DNA from: a virus
Lineage: Duplodnaviria; Heunggongvirae; Uroviricota; Caudoviricetes
IMG/VR virus record: IMGVR_UViG_2706794492_000011
Length of the DNA stretch: 8,808 nt
Reading direction: 5' to 3' (one strand)
Position numbers and translations under genes: made by a program. The notes beneath the pieces were generated by a model, which had not been told where the DNA came from, ran no database searches, and saw nothing but the letters and a program-made list of their open reading frames with translations. Each line of letters opens with the position of its first letter. Position 1 is the stretch's first letter. Shown here in pieces: positions 552 through 8,808 of the stretch.

Positions 552-586
552 TTTTCATTACCGCCCTTTCGGGCGGCCTCCTGACA

Positions 587-799
587 TTAATCGTTGTGAT
601 AACTCATAGCTTCATTTGCAGCATCAACTGGATCAACATCCCACCAGCAATAATTTGGGTCGACACCTTCAGGTGTCCACGGCTCTAATTCATTTTTTGC
701 CGCATTCTCGTCGCCAGTAATTTTAAAAATCTGCTCTGAGAACTTTTTCACCCACTCGTTATATTTTTCAGCGTTAATAACTTTCTGTGCGTTTGACAT
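587..799 (-). CDS. hypothetical small acidic protein (70 aa)
   Basis: ORF with GGAGG 7 nt upstream of the ATG at 799 (minus-strand context GGAGGTATATCA-ATG). Same strand and tight spacing with neighbouring genes. No family recognised. Confidence 0.6.
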   Translation of the reverse strand: MSNAQKVINAEKYNEWVKKFSEQIFKITGDENAAKNELEPWTPEGVDPNYCWWDVDPVDAANEAMSYHND

Positions 800-847
800 T
801 GATATACCTCCGGTTAAGGATTAAATTTTTAACAGAGCTAAATTTAA

Positions 848-1204
848 TTATTCAGTTCTGGATTTTGTCACCCTGCGTATCCGCGCTTTCACGTTACGCT
901 CAATCTGAATTAGCTTTTCTATATTTCTCCGCCTTTCCCGTTCCTCCTGGCGCAAGATCCTTACATCATCTGCCAGTCTGGTTTCTCTTTTCGCCACAGA
1001 GAGCATCCAGTCAAATGGCTCCACAACTGCACCGCAGATTTTACAGCGGACCTGACGCTCTTTTTCGTCAACCCGAACAGAGGCGTGATGACAATATGCT
1101 CTTTCCGATGGCTCATAAAGAAAATTAACCTGATTACGTGGGTCATCCTCTTTTACCGGAAATAAAACGATATTGCTTAACTCATCTTCTGGTTTTATTT
1201 CCAT
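848..1204 (-). CDS. hypothetical protein with putative zinc-ribbon (C-H-H...C-x2-C) and basic C-terminal helix
   Basis: Track ORF 848-1264 begins with GTG overlapping the upstream stop (GTGA), but an internal ATG at 1204 is preceded by AAGGAG (AAGGAGAAGAGC-ATG), so 1204 is the preferred start. Product MEIKPEDELS...YCHHASVRVDEKERQVRCKICGAVVEPFDWM...RRVTKSRTE. Confidence 0.55.
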   Translation of the reverse strand: MEIKPEDELSNIVLFPVKEDDPRNQVNFLYEPSERAYCHHASVRVDEKERQVRCKICGAVVEPFDWMLSVAKRETRLADDVRILRQEERERRRNIEKLIQIERNVKARIRRVTKSRTE

Positions 1205-1260
1205 GCTCTTCTCCTTTGATGTGAATGCCAGCGACAATTGAAGCCTGATAGCTAATTCAC

Positions 1261-1656
1261 TCACAATACCGCCTCCTGAAAATTGCCCTGATAGAACGCC
1301 AGTACACGCAGCATAACTTCACTCTTCCGGCACTCGCCACAGATTATGTTCTGTTGTCTGTCGTAGCGGCGTATTTCTCCGTCTGGTAACTTTCGAATCA
1401 ATGTCTGGTCGGTTGTTTTCTCCGCTGCCTTACGCCATACGCGATACACCTGTTCTGATGTAAAAACACCGTATTTACCGGGCATGTATAAATCGCCGCA
1501 AGCCAGTACATCCACAAGGCAACGTCTGACTGAATGCCAGCCTGCTCCCGTCGCTCTCTCCAGTTGTGATATCGTCATGCGTTCATTTTTGCGTACCAGC
1601 CCGATAATTCGGGCCTTCAGTTCTTCACGCTGTTCGTGTGTAAAAGGTTTCGCCAT
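1261..1656 (-). CDS. hypothetical winged-helix (HTH) protein
   Basis: ORF 1261-1671; preferred start is ATG at 1656 (MAKPFTHEQ...) preceded by GGAGG with 5-nt spacing. The GGAGG sits between the upstream gene stop (1672-1674) and this start. Contains an HTH-like segment MTISQLERATGAGWHSVRRCLVDVL. Confidence 0.6.
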   Translation of the reverse strand: MAKPFTHEQREELKARIIGLVRKNERMTISQLERATGAGWHSVRRCLVDVLACGDLYMPGKYGVFTSEQVYRVWRKAAEKTTDQTLIRKLPDGEIRRYDRQQNIICGECRKSEVMLRVLAFYQGNFQEAVL

Positions 1657-1671
1657 AAGCGCCTCCGGCAA

Positions 1672-2442
1672 TCACTTTTCCGACACAATACGACCGGATG
1701 AATCGACAATCTGCCGAACAATATCCCGGTGCTTGTTCAGCTCCCGCAGCGCGGCGCAGACACGCTCCCACTTCTGAACCTGACCTTTTGCCCGGCGCAG
1801 CTCGCGGTTAGCCACATGCAGCGATGGTAAAATCAGACCATCCGGATGTTTTCTGGTGAACAACGGCTGTGACTGCACTGTGACCGCCACAGTTTCTGTT
1901 TTATTTTCTTCCTGTGTTGCGGCTTCCCGGACTGGTAACGCAGCACCTGCTGGCTGAGGAAAGGCCTTACCATCACTTTCCGTTACCAGCGCGGCTTTCG
2001 GCTCTGCTGGTAAATTATCGCCCGGCATGCAGTAACGAAATTTACCGTTCTGATTAACGCGTGCCAGCCGCCCCGTTGCGGTTACCACCGCCAGCGCGGA
2101 AGCAACCTTGCGAGTACTGACACCGAACTTACCCGCCAGTTCCTCACACGTTTTAGCCCCATCCTGACCGATAAACTCAATCATCATGTCTGCGGTAACT
2201 TTTTGTTCGACCTCCCTGGTCAGCATATCCTGTGCTTCAGATTTTACTGGCCGCTCTTCGGTTACCCCGGATTCACCTTCGCCAGCCAGAAACCAGGTGT
2301 GACCCGTTTTATCAACAACGCTATTTTTTTTGAGTTCCCACAGTTCGTTGAGAACTTCTTCACGGCTGATATCAAGCCGCGCCGCCAGTTCAACAGAATT
2401 GGCTTTACCCATCGCTTTCAGTGCATGCAATACGGTTTCCAT
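1672..2442 (-). CDS. hypothetical protein with two winged-helix-like modules separated by acidic and Pro/Ala-rich linkers
   Basis: 256-aa ORF; ATG at 2442 preceded by GGAGG (minus-strand context GGAGGAAATTTTA-ATG). Two HTH-like segments (NSVELAARLDISREEVLNELWEL and KTCEELAGKFGVSTRKVASALAVV). Directly downstream of the DnaC-like gene. Confidence 0.7.
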   Translation of the reverse strand: METVLHALKAMGKANSVELAARLDISREEVLNELWELKKNSVVDKTGHTWFLAGEGESGVTEERPVKSEAQDMLTREVEQKVTADMMIEFIGQDGAKTCEELAGKFGVSTRKVASALAVVTATGRLARVNQNGKFRYCMPGDNLPAEPKAALVTESDGKAFPQPAGAALPVREAATQEENKTETVAVTVQSQPLFTRKHPDGLILPSLHVANRELRRAKGQVQKWERVCAALRELNKHRDIVRQIVDSSGRIVSEK

Positions 2443-2471: not shown

Positions 2472-3212
2472 TCAGTTCCTGTGCTGGCTGACGTTCGGAC
2501 GCCAGCTCTCCCAGTTAAACGTCACCCAGCGACCTCCGTTCATGGACATGCGGTCCATCACCCGCTCGCCGAGAAGTGTATTCATCGCTGCATGATTAAG
2601 ATTTGTCAGCATCCCCACACTGAGTAACGATGCCGTTCTGCGGTCAACAATCTGATTAAGCGTGACCTGCTCATTACGCGTATCCCGCTGCATGCCAATT
2701 TCATCCAGGACCAGCAAATCCACCCCGCAAAGCTCCTGTAAAAATTTTTCACCTGATTTGCCGTTGTCGTAACTGTCGTGCAACACACTCATGACATCAG
2801 ACACAGTGATGATAATTACGCTGCGCCCCTTCTCCATCAGCCGATTGCCTATCGCCGCCGCCAGGTGGTTTTTTCCTGTGCCAGGCCGGCCACTGAACAC
2901 AAAATTCGTACAGCCGCCTTCCAGCTCTGCCGCAATGGATTTCGCCTGACTCAGGGCATGGCGCTGACCAGCGTTCTGCACCCGGTAGTTACAGAACGTA
3001 CACTTCCGGTGAAGCGGCTGGATACCGGAGCGGTTAATGATTTTTTCAACCCGCGTCTGATGATTCAGACGATTAACCTCCTCGCTTCGCTTACGCCCTT
3101 CAGCAAGCTGCCATTCCCGCCACTCCGCCACCGTACGGTACGGAGGGATTGCATCCTGCGGCACAAATCTGCTGATTCTTGCCAGAACACCACCTGACGT
3201 AATGTTTTTCAT
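2472..3212 (-). CDS. prophage DnaC-like replicative helicase loader (IstB-like AAA+ ATPase)
   Basis: 246-aa product with Walker A GRPGTGKNHLAAAIG and Walker B LLVLDEIG; collinear similarity along its length to E. coli DnaC as recalled (…NRSGIQPLH…CTFCNYRV…IVDRR…GMLTNLN…LGERVMDRM…). Lies 6 nt downstream of the initiator gene. Confidence 0.9.
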   Translation of the reverse strand: MKNITSGGVLARISRFVPQDAIPPYRTVAEWREWQLAEGRKRSEEVNRLNHQTRVEKIINRSGIQPLHRKCTFCNYRVQNAGQRHALSQAKSIAAELEGGCTNFVFSGRPGTGKNHLAAAIGNRLMEKGRSVIIITVSDVMSVLHDSYDNGKSGEKFLQELCGVDLLVLDEIGMQRDTRNEQVTLNQIVDRRTASLLSVGMLTNLNHAAMNTLLGERVMDRMSMNGGRWVTFNWESWRPNVSQHRN

Positions 3213-3218
3213 GATGCG

Positions 3219-4187
3219 CTACCCCCTGAACCCCGGCGGAATTTCGGTATCCGGTTCAGAAATATGATTCACGCAACGCTGCGCGGGCGAACGCCCCAGG
3301 CGAATAACCAGCTCATCCCATTTTTCCCGGAGTTTTGCCGGACTCATGATGTTTTTTACCCAGAACGAATCCCGTTGAACACGCCCAAACATTTCACAAA
3401 TCTGTCGGTGACTACGTCCATCCAGCATACGCATCATGCGCACATCATTCGCCCAGGTCGTCCAGTTAGGCTCTCTGGGGCGTGATACCTCCCCATCATC
3501 ACTGGCGGCCTGTTCATACAACGCAACAACCCGTCCCCAGATCCACTGTGCACACGTCAAATCCTCCCGGGTTCCCCACTGTCGCTTCGGTACATTCCAG
3601 GTATGCGCATCCGGGTGTTTCTCCAGAAATCGCTCAACTGGTGATGATTGTTTTTCGTCCGGCAGTGAAACGTCCGGACAAGAAGATCTTTTATCTGACG
3701 GATCAGGTTTTAATACTGACGGATCGGGGTCAATCATCGCCCCCCTAATCCGCAGTTTTTTATCAACAGTTGATCCATCAACATTTGACGGGCCAACCGT
3801 TGAGGGGGCAATATTTGACGGGTCATTTTTTGCCTGGCTAATTTTTCTTTTTGGTTTATATGCCTCACGCGCCGCCGCTGCAGCTGCTTCAAGTTTTTCC
3901 ACATTAAGCCGATAGATATTGCTTACGTTACGCCCACCGACCTTACGCTCTTCCTTCGTCAGCCAGCCCTCTTTCGCCAGTTCTGCAATAGCCGATTTCA
4001 CTGTGGATTCACTTCTTGCACCGATCTGACGCCGGATAGTTTCAATGGCAGGCCATGACACGCCCTCGTCATTGCTGTAGTCTGCAAGACGGGCCATAAC
4101 CGCCACCCTGGATAAGATCATGCCGGTGAAGGCGCACCCTTCCCAGACAAGACCATGAAGCTTGCTGCTCATAAAACCCCCGAACAC
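3219..4187 (-). CDS. phage replication initiator (lambda O-like / DnaT-like C-terminus): N-terminal winged helix, DPS-repeat linker, C-terminal domain
   Basis: 322-aa ORF; start is GTG at 4187 or ATG at 4172 (MSSKLHGLVW...). N-terminal HTH-like segment LSRVAVMARLADYSNDEGVSWPAIETIRRQIGARSESTVKSAIAELAKEGWL; linker with repeated DPS/PS motifs; position immediately upstream of the DnaC-like gene. Confidence 0.75.
   Translation of the reverse strand: MFGGFMSSKLHGLVWEGCAFTGMILSRVAVMARLADYSNDEGVSWPAIETIRRQIGARSESTVKSAIAELAKEGWLTKEERKVGGRNVSNIYRLNVEKLEAAAAAAREAYKPKRKISQAKNDPSNIAPSTVGPSNVDGSTVDKKLRIRGAMIDPDPSVLKPDPSDKRSSCPDVSLPDEKQSSPVERFLEKHPDAHTWNVPKRQWGTREDLTCAQWIWGRVVALYEQAASDDGEVSRPREPNWTTWANDVRMMRMLDGRSHRQICEMFGRVQRDSFWVKNIMSPAKLREKWDELVIRLGRSPAQRCVNHISEPDTEIPPGFRG
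3695..3860. repeat. putative replication origin: four 10-bp iteron-like direct repeats plus AT-rich tract, inside the initiator gene
   Basis: CTGACGGATC at 3695-3704 and 3716-3725 (21-bp spacing); TTGACGGGCC at 3785-3794 and TTGACGGGTC at 3815-3824 (30-bp spacing); palindrome TCAACAGTTGA about 3763-3773; AT-rich stretch about 3826-3860 (TTTTTTGCCTGGCTAATTTTTCTTTTTGGTTTATAT). Matches the lambda-type arrangement of ori within the O gene linker. Confidence 0.45.
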
Positions 4188-4194
4188 CGTGCTT

Positions 4195-4620
4195 TTAGTG
4201 CATCACCACAGCATTCCCTGCCGGGCCGCCGCGATTCATCTGGTCATACAAAACAACCGCTGACGCAACAAAATCATCGACATCCTTCACCAGCCGATCC
4301 CTCCGTTCGACGATCTCACGGTAATATTCAGAACTGTGGCTGCGCATACGGGCCACCAGCAAAGGCGGCATCGCCTTTTCGATCGCCGGTAACAGAGCCT
4401 GCATTTTTTCAACAGCATCAGGGGTGTCTTTCTCTACCCAGCGGAAAATTTTCTGGGTATTGCGAGCCAGGGCTTCCGGATGGCTGTCGTCATACAGTTC
4501 TGGGAACGTCATACCCAACTCAAAATAAGCCTGGGTTATTCCAGCTGCTGGAACTTTTTCGCCATCAGGACGCGCCCAGGCATTCATCGCCATGCGGATG
4601 TGTTCATGCTTGATTTTCAT
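4195..4620 (-). CDS. ydaT: YdaT-family protein (Rac-prophage YdaT-like; reported as toxin or CII-like regulator)
   Basis: 141-aa ORF beginning MKIKHEHI..., ATG at 4620 with GGAG about 7 nt upstream; overlaps the upstream YdaS-like gene by 17 nt; position (Cro-like, YdaT, replication genes) as in Rac. Confidence 0.7.
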   Translation of the reverse strand: MKIKHEHIRMAMNAWARPDGEKVPAAGITQAYFELGMTFPELYDDSHPEALARNTQKIFRWVEKDTPDAVEKMQALLPAIEKAMPPLLVARMRSHSSEYYREIVERRDRLVKDVDDFVASAVVLYDQMNRGGPAGNAVVMH

Positions 4621-4879
4621 GAATCAACTCCGGTGTATTTTGTGTGTTAGCCTTATCTCCAGCAGGCAACCCGTCGGTTGGATTCGGATATAAATCTGGT
4701 CGCAATTCATGAGGAGTCACCCCAGTTGCAATATAAATTTGACGAACCCGCTCCCCTGTCGGCACTCGACCATTGTATTCATTTGCCCATTTGTGTATTT
4801 GAGACGGCCAAGCCCCTATTGCACGCCCTAGCGGACGAATACCACCAGCAATCTTTATTGCCTTGTCCAATGCTGTCAT
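4604..4879 (-). CDS. ydaS: Cro-like HTH regulator, YdaS family
   Basis: 91-aa ORF MTALDKAIKIAGGIRPLGRAIGAWPSQIHKWANEY...; GGAGG 4 nt upstream of ATG at 4879; first gene of the leftward operon, divergent from the repressor gene. Confidence 0.7.
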   Translation of the reverse strand: MTALDKAIKIAGGIRPLGRAIGAWPSQIHKWANEYNGRVPTGERVRQIYIATGVTPHELRPDLYPNPTDGLPAGDKANTQNTPELIHENQA

Positions 4880-4946: not shown

Positions 4947-4984
4947 ATTGTTAGTGTTCACTGAACGGTTATAATTGCTAAATG
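4947..4984 (+). promoter_or_regulatory. putative repressor-maintenance (PRM-like) promoter: -10 TATAAT at 4970-4975 about 7 nt before the repressor ATG; adjacent palindrome GTTCACTGAAC (4955-4965)
   Basis: Perfect TATAAT hexamer ending 6 nt before ATG 4982 with no Shine-Dalgarno in between, implying a leaderless mRNA. Weak -35 TTGTTA at 4948-4953. Shares the TGTTCAC half-site with the operator. Confidence 0.4.
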
Positions 4985-5371
4985 GACATGAGAAAAAAGC
5001 AATACGACACCCCGCTGGCAGAAAGGTTAGATACGATCTCGCAACAGCATCATTTAAGCGGTTCAGATTTAGCGCGCATCGCTGGTGTAGGACGCTCATC
5101 AGTCAACGCCTGGAAAAAAAGAGGGACAATCAGTAAAGATTCCGCAGCCAAAATTGCAGAAGCGACAAATGTTTCCCTTTCCTGGCTACTGACAGGAAAA
5201 GAAGATACAAACAGAGAGGCGCTTGATGATGATGAGAAAGCCCTGCTTGATGTTTACAGAAACCTGCCACCTGTAGAGCGTAGAAATATGCTGGCAGCTT
5301 TTCAAATGCGCCTTCAAAAACTGACCGAATTTTACTCAGAATACGTTGACCCAATAACGCGACAAAAATAA
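4982..5371 (+). CDS. dicA: XRE-family phage repressor (DicA/RacR-like): N-terminal HTH plus C-terminal helical domain
   Basis: 129-aa ORF with HTH segment LSGSDLARIAGVGRSSVNAWKK; divergent from the Cro-like gene; followed by terminator and the dicF-dicB arm as in Qin. The symbol is by analogy and recalled similarity, not a database hit. Confidence 0.75.
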   Translation: MDMRKKQYDTPLAERLDTISQQHHLSGSDLARIAGVGRSSVNAWKKRGTISKDSAAKIAEATNVSLSWLLTGKEDTNREALDDDEKALLDVYRNLPPVERRNMLAAFQMRLQKLTEFYSEYVDPITRQK

Positions 5372-5953: not shown

Positions 5954-6011
5954 TTTCTGGTGACGTTTGGCGGTATCAGTTTTACTCCGTGACTGCTCTG
6001 CCGCCCTTTTT
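5954..6011 (+). ncRNA. dicF: DicF small RNA (ftsZ-targeting sRNA of Qin-type prophages)
   Basis: TTTCTGGTGACGTTTGGCGGTATCAGTTTTACTCCGTGACTGCTCTGCCGCCCTTTTT matches E. coli DicF as I recall it; ends in a GC-rich segment plus T5; about 170 nt upstream of a dicB homologue. Exact ends are approximate. Confidence 0.6.
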
Positions 6012-6180: not shown

Positions 6181-6369
6181 ATGGAAACGTCACTACCAAA
6201 CGTTAATACGTCTGAAGGGTGTTTTAATATTGGTATTCTGCTCAGTAACCGGGAGTTTACTGAAGACGCCATCAGGATGAGAAAATATGAGCCTTATCTT
6301 CTCAATGATAATTCCATACTCTCCAGAATTGCCCTTCTTGAACTTGGCATTTTCGGAGGGCAGCAGTGA
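6181..6369 (+). CDS. dicB: DicB-like cell-division inhibitor (MinC-activating), 62 aa
   Basis: METSLPNVNTSEGCFNIGILLSNREFTEDAIRMRKYEPYLLNDNSILSRIALLELGIFGGQQ; N-terminal half closely matches recalled K-12 DicB (METLLPNVNTSEGCFEIG...FTEDAI...), C-terminal half diverges. GAGG 8 nt upstream of ATG 6181. Confidence 0.75.
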   Translation: METSLPNVNTSEGCFNIGILLSNREFTEDAIRMRKYEPYLLNDNSILSRIALLELGIFGGQQ

Positions 6370-6646: not shown

Positions 6647-8808
6647 ATGAGCACTGATAAAGAAGAAATTGCACTGTATTACGAAGCCAAAAATGACAAA
6701 GTCAGAAAACGCCTTGGGATTAAAGGCGGTTTTTACTGGCGCACAGCAAAAAAATTATCGGTTGCAATATCACGGGGTGTTGTCGCAATGGACGATGCTG
6801 GATTTGACGAAGAGGATTTCAAAAAACCTGTTCGCGTGAATTTGCCCATTGTTAATGACCTGCCGCCTGAAGGTGTGTTCGATACTGAATTCTGCAACCG
6901 CTATGAAAAAGGCGGAGAAGATGGCATCACAATGATATTTATAGCGCCTTCCCCCTCAGTTCAGGACAAACCAGCCAGCACTGACAATACCAACGTCAAT
7001 GGCGAAGACATGGCTGAGATTGAGGATAATATGCTCCTGCCGATTTCCGGTCAGGAACTGCCCATTCGCTGGCTTGCGCAACATGGCAGCGAAAAACCGG
7101 TAACGCACGTTTCACGGGAAGAACTTCAGGCATTACATATCGCACGAGCTGAAGAACTGCCTGCTGTTACTGCCCTGGCTATTTCCCACAACACAAAGCT
7201 GCTCGACCCGCTGGAGATTCGCGACCTTCACAAACTGGTACGCGACACAGACAAAGTTTTCCCTAATCCCGTTAATTCCAGTCTGGGGTTAATGACTGCT
7301 TTTTTCGAAGCATACCTGGACGCTGACTATACCGATCGAGGTCTGCTGACAAAAGAGTGGATGAAAGGAAATCGTGTTTTACGCATCAGCCGCACGCCAT
7401 CCGGCGCTAATGCTGGCGGAGGAATTCTTACCGATCGCGGTGAAGGTTTTGTCCACGATGATGCGTCAGTGGAACGTGACGTTGCCGCTGGCGTTCTGGC
7501 CCGTTCAATGGACATCGATATTTACAATCCACATCCGGCACACGCCAAACGCATTGAAGAAATCGTTTCAGAGAATAAGCCGCCCTTTTCTGTTTTTCGT
7601 GACAAATTCATCGCCATGCCTGGTCACCTGGATTATTCCCGCGCGATAGTGGTTGCGTCCGTGAAAGAAGCACCAATTGGTATCGAGGCTACTCCCCACC
7701 GTGTTACCGAATATCTGAACAAAGTACTGACCGAAACCGACCATGCCAACCCTGATCCAGAAATCGTGGATATTGCCTGCGGTCGCTCCTCTGCTCCAAT
7801 GCCGCAGCGTGTAACAAAAGAAGGAAAACAGGATGATGAAGAAAAACCGCAGCCATCTGGCGCAATGGCAGATGAACAGGCAACGACTGAAGCAGTGGAA
7901 CCGGATACAACTGAACATAATCAGGACACGCAGTCGATGGATGCTCAGCCACAGATAAATTCTGTTGATGCGAAATATCAGAAACTGCGGGCAGAACTCC
8001 ATGAAGCCCGGAAAAACATTCCGCCCCAAAATCCTGTCGATGCAGACAAATTACTGGCTGCCTCTCGCGGAGAATTTGTTGAAGGGATTAGCGACCCGAA
8101 TGATCCGAAATGGATTAAGGGGATCCAGACCCGCGATTCTGTGTACCAGAATCAGCCAGAAACGGAACAGAACGACCAGAAAGCGGAACAGAACAGCCCA
8201 AATACGCAACAAAACGAGCCAGAAACGAAACAACCTGAACCAGTAGTGCAACAGGAACCGGAAAAGATCTGCACCGCCTGCGGTCAGAGGAGTGGCGGCA
8301 ACTGCCCTGATTGTGGCGCGGTGATGGGCGACGCAACATACCAGGAAACATTCGATGACAAGAACCTGGTTGAAGTTCAGGAAGACGATTCGGAGAAAAT
8401 GGAAGGCGCTGAACATCAGCACAAGGAGAACACTGGCGGCAATCAGCATCATGCCAGCGATAGTGAAACTGGCGAGACGGCAGATCCCTTAATTACGGTG
8501 AACGGTCATCGCATTATCACATCCACCAGCAGGACGTGTGACCATCTAATGATCGACCTTGAAACCATGGGAAAAAATCCTGATGCCCCGATTATCTCAA
8601 TAGGTGCAATATTTTTCGATCCGCAAACCGGAGATATGGGACCGGAATTTAGTAAGACTATCGATCTGGAAACTGCTGGCGGAGTCATTGATCGGGACAC
8701 CATTAAATGGTGGCTTAAGCAATCACGCGAAGCGCAATCTGCCATTATGACCGATGAAATCCCGTTAGATGATGCACTGTTACAATTGCGGGAATTTATC
8801 GACGAAAA
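6647..8808 (+). CDS. recE: RecE-like exodeoxyribonuclease VIII (partial, 3' end beyond window): N-terminal/central RecE region, Q/E/P-rich linker, Cys4 zinc ribbon, then DEDD (DnaQ-like) exonuclease motif
   Basis: Open frame from ATG 6647 (GAGG 7 nt upstream) to the window end, about 720 codons, no stop; absent from the supplied track because it is edge-truncated. Long collinear similarity to recalled K-12 RecE ([40 protein letters not shown]...[19 protein letters not shown]...[21 protein letters not shown]...[26 protein letters not shown]). From about 8520 the sequence reads [26 protein letters not shown]..., a DnaQ-type Exo I (D-x-E) motif. Confidence 0.85.

Follow-up and report, generated by a model that had tools for sequence, protein, structure and literature searches.

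Which functions are encoded by the three genes that follow the helicase loader in a lambda-like prophage, and do these genes act together? We addressed this question for an 8,808-nucleotide stretch of DNA (hereafter, the window) that comes from a lambdoid prophage of E. coli O157:H7, integrated beside ompW. All genes, domains and motifs described below are on the minus strand. The block consists of three co-directional open reading frames, at positions 1672-2442 (256 aa), 1261-1656 (131 aa) and 848-1204 (118 aa). A DnaC-type helicase loader (2472-3212; NCBIfam PRK12377, 479 bits; PHROG 50) is encoded directly upstream of the 256-aa gene, and the block has the replication genes on one side and the remaining nin region with gene Q on the other. 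The first-pass annotation, made from the sequence alone, had recognized this position as the nin-type accessory region of a lambdoid prophage, and also the tight packing of the genes: the gaps are 15-56 nt long, and each gene has a Shine-Dalgarno site (GGAGG for the 256-aa and 131-aa genes, AAGGAG for the 118-aa gene) with the ATG 5-8 nt downstream. Past the block, a 70-aa gene (587-799) matches PHROG 4659 (E 3.7e-50), a family to which PHROG gives no function; this gene adjoins the 118-aa gene both here and in ArgO145-type Stx phages.

The gene status of all three reading frames is far above chance (Pfam DUF1627, 292 bits; Pfam DUF977, 241 bits; PHROG 1621, E 8e-54). The same matches overturn the earlier impression that none of the products belongs to a recognizable family. 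At the level of sequence, the three proteins are identical to RefSeq entries (WP_000450888, at 100%, for the 256-aa protein; WP_001118161 for the 131-aa protein; WP_001302146 for the 118-aa protein) and fall into already catalogued families. No Nin family (NinB-NinI) is among their Pfam, PHROG and NCBIfam matches, NCBIfam returned nothing specific to their families, and a PDB sequence search with each of the three gave no significant match. The genes are delayed-early, non-structural genes of the early-right (PR) operon, for which the promoter scan placed a PR-like promoter at 4935-4907. Within the block, the promoter and terminator scan yielded nothing above chance level, no operator-like repeats or promoters were found around it, and an Rfam search of the block found no RNA family. 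Because the block has no internal promoter or terminator above chance, the genes would stay silent in a lysogen, which counts against a defence role expressed from the prophage.

The middle gene offers the clearest link to a known phage function. Its 131-aa product (counted from the ATG; 136 aa if started at an upstream TTG) matches Pfam PF06163 (DUF977) with 241.1 bits, against a cut-off of 22.1, over model positions 1-134 of 134; the protein is named LygF in some phage records. PHROG 142, the 'Ren-like exclusion protein' family, is common to this protein (E 2e-43) and lambda Ren (E 1.6e-41). The two are also connected by BLASTP (E 2e-6) and by hhalign of the 131-aa profile against Ren (probability 95.8%, E 6.5e-9, residues 17-123 against 7-93), so that, contrary to the first-pass annotation, this gene has a clear match to a known family. 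These comparisons identify lambda Ren as a homologue of the 131-aa protein. Its winged helix-turn-helix (wHTH) domain (residues 14-62; 1471-1617) matches the second winged helix of the 256-aa protein by hhalign and is aligned with the wHTH of Ren; DUF977 has previously been reported as a winged helix (PMC2686095). The top-scoring stretch against Ren is the C-terminal motif EIRRYDRQQNIICGECRKSEVMLRVLAFYQ (1288-1377), which conforms to the pattern N-[IL]-[IV]-x-x-E-C-R-x-S-x-x-M-x-R-V-L-A-x-Y. Within it, E108, C109 and R110 do not vary among DUF977 proteins, lambda Ren and a 109-aa Ren-like protein, and S112, M115, R117, L119, A120 and Y122 are at least 90% conserved. The 'IICGEC' segment was considered as a zinc site and dropped, given that one of the two cysteines is missing from Ren and that no further ligands are conserved.

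Ren and the 131-aa protein thus share a winged helix followed by a C-terminal helix with the invariant E-C-R motif, membership in the same PHROG, a basic character (net charge +8 for Ren and +7 for the 131-aa protein) and a place in the same operon and region, namely, past the helicase loader where the nin region begins; in lambda, ren is the first gene after P. The differences are considerable: Ren is 96 aa long, whereas the 131-aa protein has an N-terminal extension and a 20-residue insertion; the identity is only 29%; and the Pfam DUF977 model does not detect Ren. In lambda, the end of P and ren overlap, whereas here the DUF1627 gene separates the 131-aa gene from the loader. In the E. coli/Shigella loci L004-L007, however, the DUF977 gene abuts the DnaC-like gene.

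The 256-aa protein belongs to the YdaW family, matching Pfam PF07789 (DUF1627) with 292.3 bits (cut-off 28.1; model positions 1-155 of 155) and PHROG 630 with an E-value of 4.6e-132 (profile positions 1-252 of 253). Its AlphaFold2 model comprises a first winged helix (wHTH1), a disordered linker, a second winged helix (wHTH2), another disordered linker and a C-terminal helix. An alignment of 44 DUF1627 members together with the model shows the layout of the family, namely, an N-terminal wHTH, a variable linker, a second wHTH and a C-terminal helix. The two HTH-like modules noticed in the first-pass annotation correspond to the wHTH domains at residues 4-52 and 84-138 of the model, both of which display the DSSP pattern of helix 1, an optional strand, helices 2 and 3, and a hairpin wing. 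wHTH1 (residues 1-55; 2278-2442; pLDDT ~90, order H-E-H-H-E-E) is the best-conserved part of the family and matches Pfam HTH models weakly; it is acidic (net charge -2, pI 5.6), including its third helix. wHTH2 (residues 83-142; 2017-2196; pLDDT ~85) is mildly basic, and residues 83-137 match the Ren-like PHROG 142 (E 1.8e-5). The C-terminal basic helix (residues 206-256; 1675-1827) is modelled as helices 208-237 and 239-255 with pLDDT ~90, carries a net charge of +6 and contains the conserved motif E-I-R-R-T-K...L...L. Short DUF1627 members of 117-167 aa (for example, in locus L015) lack wHTH2 and match the N- and C-terminal parts only.

The closest named relative is YdaW (b1361) of the K-12 Rac prophage, which is 58% identical to the 256-aa protein over residues 1-154, that is, both winged helices, and is encoded in the same place, after the DnaC-like ydaV. 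At 186 aa, however, K-12 YdaW is a truncated copy without the second linker or the C-terminal helix, whereas the window encodes the full-length form. Phage Rac-SA53 has the same gene order of ydaV, DUF1627 ('ydaW') and DUF977 ('LygF') but no zinc-ribbon gene after LygF. In structure comparisons, Foldseek retrieved MarR, ArsR and Z-alpha domains for the 256-aa model with probability 1.0 and rmsd of 0.8-2 A over 52-62 residues, and nothing beyond generic single and tandem winged helices. The top tandem matches (E ~1e-3), ScpB, the C-terminal domains of SelB, ESCRT-II subunits and DDRGK1/UFL1, also contain two consecutive winged helices, but have no sequence relationship to the 256-aa protein and belong to unrelated biology; furthermore, in the 256-aa protein a disordered linker connects the domains, which are not packed together, and there is an extra long C-terminal helix.

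The winged helices of the two proteins had been described as three paralogous modules, and this claim is borne out in part. By hhalign, wHTH1 is related to wHTH2 (probability 95%, E 4e-8) and wHTH2 to the DUF977 wHTH (77%, E 2e-5), but the comparison of wHTH1 with the DUF977 wHTH reaches only 1.6%. Direct BLASTP detected no significant similarity between the 256-aa protein and either the 131-aa protein or Ren. The three C-terminal helices show no relationship by hhalign, so the common plan of a wHTH with a terminal helix has no homology support from the helices. Rare database proteins fuse parts of two of the three proteins of the block.

The 118-aa protein represents PHROG 1621 (E 8.2e-54), and its homologues form 119 clusters in Enterobacterales. 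A GTGA sequence (1261-1264), formed by a GTG and the overlapping TGA that ends the gene for the Ren homologue, had been taken as the junction with this gene; the sequence is indeed present, but the GTG opens a 138-aa frame, not the 118-aa protein. The GTG at 1264 is probably not the start used, because the ATG at 1204 is where the PHROG profile, the RefSeq entry and distant homologues start. In the acidic, disordered N-terminus, the conserved motif ELSNIVLFP (1157-1183; ELSNVVxFP in the family) includes the invariant F15 and P16 as well as E8, L9 and N11, which are at least 90% conserved, and is flanked by a segment of low pLDDT. The zinc ribbon and basic C-terminal helix seen in the first-pass annotation were recovered. 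The putative zinc knuckle C38-x-H40 ... C54-x2-C57 (1034-1093) has four ligands that are invariant in 26 homologues, down to 46% identity, and is modelled by AlphaFold2 as a beta-hairpin at residues 43-54 (strands 43-46 and 51-54), with metal binding predicted. It is followed by a 55-residue basic helix (residues 63-117; 854-1018; pLDDT 86-94; net charge +7), the best-conserved part of the protein, in which L84, E87, E88, R91, R92, N94, K97, L98, Q100, E102, N104, R108, I109 and R110 are invariant.

In its beta-hairpin knuckle with four ligands and in its size, this domain resembles the TFIIB-type zinc ribbon (PF08271), but the latter has four cysteines in place of Cys-His-Cys-Cys and lacks both the acidic disordered tail before the knuckle and the long basic helix after it. 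The score of the 118-aa protein against the TFIIB-type profile (Pfam Zn_Ribbon_TF), 18.2 bits, is under the 29-bit cut-off. Foldseek against PDB and BFVD retrieved the N-terminal ribbon of TFIIB as the best match (E 0.64) and no informative viral match, and none of the PDB and Foldseek searches linked the protein to a pathway.

The three-gene block had been viewed as a single unit, but its genes are distributed as two mosaic units: a DUF1627-DUF977 pair and a zinc-ribbon gene that is separately mobile between phage regions. Among 5,426 complete E. coli genomes, each single gene is present in 1,126 to 2,714, compared with 191 for the whole block. DUF977 follows DUF1627 in about 74 of 80 loci, and in a separate count DUF1627 precedes DUF977 in 53 of 69 evaluable loci. 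The zinc-ribbon gene, in contrast, follows DUF977 in only 14 of 79 related loci; elsewhere, it is found beside Q in other genera and in the early-left region of Stx phages. Window positions 560-1237 are 92.6% identical to the early-left region of Stx2a phages, and the similarity stops at position 1237. The linkage extends to a distant locus, L111, where DUF1627 comes after a Ren-like gene, in inverted order relative to the window. In the distant relatives L106, L107 and L109, the DUF1627 gene lacks a DUF977 neighbour, so that common descent, and not function, could account for the pairing in E. coli.

By analogy with Ren, we tentatively propose that the most likely role of these genes is a non-essential function that would shield the phage from exclusion systems. 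Ren is non-essential in lambda, the Rex-exclusion literature is cited for it, and the whole nin region is dispensable for plaque formation (PMC10695390). Homology suggests that the 131-aa protein would be a dispensable factor made with the replication proteins, one that would prevent Rex-type exclusion systems of resident prophages from aborting the lytic growth of the phage itself; the homology is also supported by the location of Ren-like genes directly after the helicase loader in lambda and in L004-L007. The YdaW-family protein would most likely work likewise, given its plan of a wHTH with a terminal helix and its usual neighbour, the Ren-like gene. Its winged helices would bind a nucleic-acid intermediate or a host or defence protein, and the C-terminal helix would oligomerize. 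As for the zinc-ribbon protein, it is probably a small factor in its own right, which would bind nucleic acid or protein and dimerize via its helix.

In a literature search for DUF1627, DUF977, LygF and ydaW, the only functional study found was an overexpression screen, reported in a preprint, in which K-12 ydaW scored as blocking RcaT, the toxin of retron-Sen2 (bioRxiv 10.1101/2020.06.22.160242), a hint at counter-defence; the functions of ydaUVW are described in the literature as undetermined. The RcaT-blocking YdaW is the truncated K-12 form without the C-terminal helix, and the blocking effect could be indirect. Similarity to Ren carries over a phenotype, not a mechanism, and the low identity to Ren, the 20-residue insertion and the generic nature of wHTH domains count against the transfer.

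A possible but doubtful alternative is that the winged-helix proteins are ordinary sequence-specific transcription regulators of phage early or late genes or of host genes, with the zinc-ribbon protein as a further small regulator. Such a function would fit the weak matches to the MarR, ArsR, DeoR, GntR and TrmB HTH families, the Foldseek matches to MarR/ArsR regulators at rmsd 1-2 A, the basic charge of the Ren homologue, wHTH2 and both C-terminal helices, and the listing of YdaW among predicted E. coli transcription factors of unknown function (PMC9308461). However, every HTH match is under the family cut-off, the best-conserved domain, wHTH1, is acidic even in its third helix, which is untypical of DNA recognition, and the scan found no operator-like repeats or promoters around the block; moreover, the sole known phenotype of Ren is exclusion rather than regulation.

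Distinctly improbable, in our estimate, is a role of the 256-aa and 131-aa proteins as accessory factors of the phage replication module, modulating the initiator, the loader or host DnaB, or binding the origin. DUF1627 genes do remain neighbours of the replication genes in distant relatives too, in some cases ahead of the initiator (YdaT, DUF1627, O-like and P in L107; O, P, a 123-aa gene and DUF1627 in L109; O-like, Ren-like and DUF1627 in L111), Ren-like genes adjoin the loader gene in lambda and in L004-L007, and some initiators, as well as ScpB, typically contain tandem winged helices. Yet many lambdoid phages lack these genes, lambda Ren and the nin region are dispensable for plaque formation (PMC10695390), and the DUF1627/DUF977 pair is found with several unrelated replication modules, which argues that it has no specific partner. 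Least credible is the reading towards which the first-pass annotation leaned, in which the whole block works as one system, for example a toxin-antitoxin or defence module of the prophage. The close, co-directional packing and the rare fusion proteins speak for such a system, but the neighbourhood data largely refute it: the zinc-ribbon gene seldom follows DUF977 and occurs beside Q or in the early-left region, the whole block is far rarer than its single genes, and the block has no promoter of its own. Nor did PADLOC-DB bear out the suggested anti-host or defence function, as it returned no known defence system, only weak, generic matches (E 2e-4 at best) to CARF, Csa3 and CasR models, confined to their wHTH parts, and no match for the 118-aa protein.

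The preferred role, Ren-like protection from exclusion, can be extended to a broader and rather unlikely scenario, in which the YdaW-family and Ren-like proteins, each with a winged helix and a terminal helix, would belong as two branches to a single, widespread class of counter-defence factors of lambdoid phages. Produced alongside the replication proteins, these would neutralize abortive-infection systems, such as RexAB and retron toxins like RcaT, that sense intermediates of replication or recombination, and the conserved ELSNVVxFP tail of the zinc-ribbon protein could dock to a host protein. As it stands, the finding is of little weight, these proteins being common in E. coli genomes (hundreds to thousands) and already catalogued; its useful part is that it ties the 131-aa protein to lambda Ren and the 256-aa protein to YdaW, and resolves the supposed block into a mosaic of separate units. 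If the counter-defence scenario were true, it would explain the abundance of these genes in E. coli prophages, including Shiga-toxin phages, and would provide a molecular handle on the 45-year-old Ren phenotype, helping to explain how Ren evades Rex exclusion.

The three genes at 1672-2442, 1261-1656 and 848-1204, all on the minus strand, are ordinary lambdoid mosaic accessory DNA, with mechanisms that are predicted at most. The first-pass annotation recognised no known family among them; however, all three products are catalogued, the 256-aa protein as DUF1627/PHROG 630, the 131-aa protein as DUF977/PHROG 142, and the 118-aa protein as PHROG 1621. RefSeq already contains these sequences, which are extremely common. 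Among known entities, the nearest are lambda Ren; YdaW of the Rac prophage, along with the ydaW/LygF pair of Rac-SA53; generic tandem winged-helix proteins; and, for the 118-aa protein, TFIIB-type zinc ribbons.

The window segment 560-2480 is 100% identical to many Escherichia coli O157:H7 chromosomes, for example, that of strain FRIK944, where the copy lies within a lambdoid prophage integrated beside ompW. In minus-strand order, a Cro/YdaS-like gene (4604-4879), a YdaT (CII-like) gene (4195-4620), an O-like initiator gene (3219-4187) and a DnaC-type loader gene (2472-3212) are followed by the three genes, the 70-aa gene (587-799) and more small genes and, further on in the full prophage, by hokD, DUF968, RusA and antiterminator Q. 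This gene order, together with the divergent CI-like repressor gene (4982-5371) and a PR-like promoter (4935-4907), places the three genes within the early-right operon, in the proximal part of the nin region, in agreement with the nin-type position originally proposed. Within the three-gene block, a promoter and terminator scan yielded nothing beyond chance, and an Rfam search found no RNA family. We expect the three genes to share a transcript with the replication genes and not to be expressed in the lysogen.

Elsewhere in the window, the early-left operon carries a full-length DicF small RNA (5955-6006, plus strand; Rfam RF00039, 76.7 bits), followed by an ORF (6181-6369, plus strand) annotated in FRIK944 as the DicB cell-division-inhibitor gene. 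A run of 149 Ns (265-413) hides the central part of a hypothetical 123-aa gene (180-551; WP_000137941 in FRIK944), and the DUF551 gene named in the first-pass annotation comes next, mostly beyond the start of the window. At 7750-8500, inside a RecE-like exonuclease gene that continues past the window's end, one strand strongly favours A over T (AT skew as high as 0.38).

The three ORFs are present as originally called, each with a Shine-Dalgarno site 5-8 nt before its ATG. The GTGA sequence thought to form a stop/start overlap does occur at 1264-1261, but the GTG there is the first codon of a 138-aa ORF; the 118-aa protein starts from ATG 1204. The latter start is supported by the PHROG 1621 profile, which aligns only from residue 21 of the long ORF onwards, by the RefSeq annotation, by homologues in other genera, which share this start, and by the end of nucleotide similarity to Stx2a phages at position 1237. 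Both candidate starts are preceded by strong Shine-Dalgarno sequences within 1205-1284 (AGGAGG 7 nt 5' of GTG 1264; AAGGAG 6 nt 5' of ATG 1204), and a longer 138-aa isoform is possible.

The 256-aa protein is a full-length match to Pfam DUF1627 (292 bits) and PHROG 630. An AlphaFold2 model built from a 44-sequence alignment consists of two winged helices, wHTH1 (residues 4-52, pLDDT about 90) and wHTH2 (84-138, pLDDT about 85), and a C-terminal helix (208-255), with disordered linkers between them (56-79 and about 145-205). Foldseek confirms the winged-helix fold, with matches to MarR, ArsR and Z-alpha domains at probability 1.0 and rmsd 1-2 A, and tandem winged-helix proteins are the top whole-chain matches. 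Thus, the two HTH-like modules previously noticed in this protein are borne out, but the description of three paralogous modules holds only in part: hhalign relates wHTH1 to wHTH2 (probability 95%, E 4e-8) and wHTH2 to the DUF977 winged helix (77%, E 2e-5), but not wHTH1 to the latter (1.6%, E 0.032). K-12 Rac YdaW is 58% identical to the 256-aa protein across both winged helices and is a truncated copy that lacks the C-terminal helix. The family is small (166 representative clusters from 1.84 billion proteins) and includes short forms of 117-167 aa with only wHTH1 and the C-terminal helix, so that wHTH2 looks like an internal addition. The most conserved winged helix, wHTH1, is acidic, which points to binding of protein rather than DNA.

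The 131-aa protein belongs to Pfam DUF977 (241 bits) and to PHROG 142, 'Ren-like exclusion protein', to which lambda Ren itself is also assigned (E 1.6e-41). Ren matches the 131-aa protein in BLASTP (E 2e-6) and the DUF977 profile in hhalign (probability 95.8% over the full length of Ren), and an E-C-R motif is conserved without exception in the DUF977/Ren family. The gene is named LygF in some phage records; PMC4490851 mentions LygF only in listing genes specific to Salmonella serovars and assigns it no function.

For the 118-aa protein, a Pfam search returned no family, with the TFIIB zinc-ribbon model scoring below the cut-off, and PDB searches by sequence and by fold found no relative. Nevertheless, the predicted zinc ribbon and helix are upheld: none of C38, H40, C54 and C57 varies among 26 homologues with identities as low as 46%, and the structural model comprises an acidic disordered N-terminus, a beta-hairpin knuckle and a single 55-residue helix (pLDDT about 90). 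Residues 8-16 (window 1157-1183) form a conserved motif, E-L-[SG]-[NK]-[VI]-[VIL]-x-F-P, within an otherwise variable, acidic and disordered N-terminus; it is a possible docking peptide for a protein of the host.

Neighbourhood counts show that the proposed three-gene block is not one conserved unit. Of 80 IMG/VR loci carrying close relatives of DUF1627, about 74 have DUF977 after it, but the zinc-ribbon gene follows in only about 36. Across 79 loci, DUF977 is preceded by DUF1627 in 53 and by a DnaC-like gene in 7, and is followed by the zinc-ribbon gene in only 14. Four E. coli/Shigella loci (L004-L007) carry DnaC, DUF977 and the zinc-ribbon gene in that order, without DUF1627. The zinc-ribbon gene of Erwinia, Yersinia, Phytobacter, Photorhabdus and others lies at the distal end of the nin region, after NinG-like or small-nuclease genes and immediately 5' of antiterminator Q, and ArgO145-type Stx2a phages carry both it and the 70-aa gene in the early-left ead/Ea22 region. 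In 5,426 complete E. coli genomes, DUF1627-type DNA was detected in 2,714, the zinc-ribbon gene in 1,679, this DUF977 allele in 1,126, and the whole 560-2480 stretch, at >=80% coverage, in 191. Distant DUF1627 genes still adjoin replication genes, but the order varies and DUF977 is often missing; in one such locus (L111), DUF1627 comes immediately after a Ren-like gene.

Another distant DUF1627 relative (L107, 2600-3316) lies upstream of the initiator, in the order YdaT, DUF1627, O-like, lambda-P-like, and a tandem-wHTH relative (L110, 3377-4165) occurs in a conjugative-element context with the type IV secretion genes TraF, DotD and TraI. Rare in-frame chimeras (P0280, P0297, P0273, P0245, P0156) join the zinc-ribbon N-part to the DUF977 C-part, DUF1627 wHTH2 to the zinc ribbon, an Ea22 coiled coil to the zinc ribbon, or the DUF1627 C-helix to DUF977, suggesting recombination inside genes or frameshift/assembly artefacts. 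Short contigs attributed to unrelated hosts carry enterobacterial-type prophage genes, including zinc-ribbon genes near-identical to that of the window (L008, Collinsella MAG; L014, Ursidibacter) or only 52% identical (L013, Chitinophagales MAG), and the 'Actinobacillus phage' PP818812 has a DUF1627 gene with 80-84% identity; mis-binning, contamination or wrong host labels are the probable causes.

The 131-aa protein resembles lambda Ren in fold plan, in motif and charge, and in genomic setting, so that a Ren-like role is most likely, in which it would protect the phage as Ren does. Ren reportedly protects lambda from Rex exclusion (Toothman and Herskowitz, 1980) and is not known to have any other phenotype. 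The ren gene is dispensable in lambda (PMC10695390). The 256-aa protein usually accompanies the 131-aa protein and is comparably built, with winged helix and terminal helix, but hhalign detected no homology among the terminal helices. Its truncated K-12 orthologue, YdaW, was a retron-Sen2 toxin blocker in an overexpression screen (bioRxiv 10.1101/2020.06.22.160242), and a 2023 paper gives the functions of ydaUVW as undetermined (PMC11014345).

Apart from a Ren-like protective role, we considered that these proteins could be plain transcription regulators or replication accessory factors. That all three genes form a single defence or toxin-antitoxin system is strongly argued against by their separate placement across neighbourhoods, by PADLOC, which assigned none of the three proteins to a defence system, and by the lack of a separate promoter for the block. 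The sole forward-looking value of the locus lies in a testable hypothesis, namely that YdaW-type and Ren-type proteins may together make up one class of counter-defence factors.
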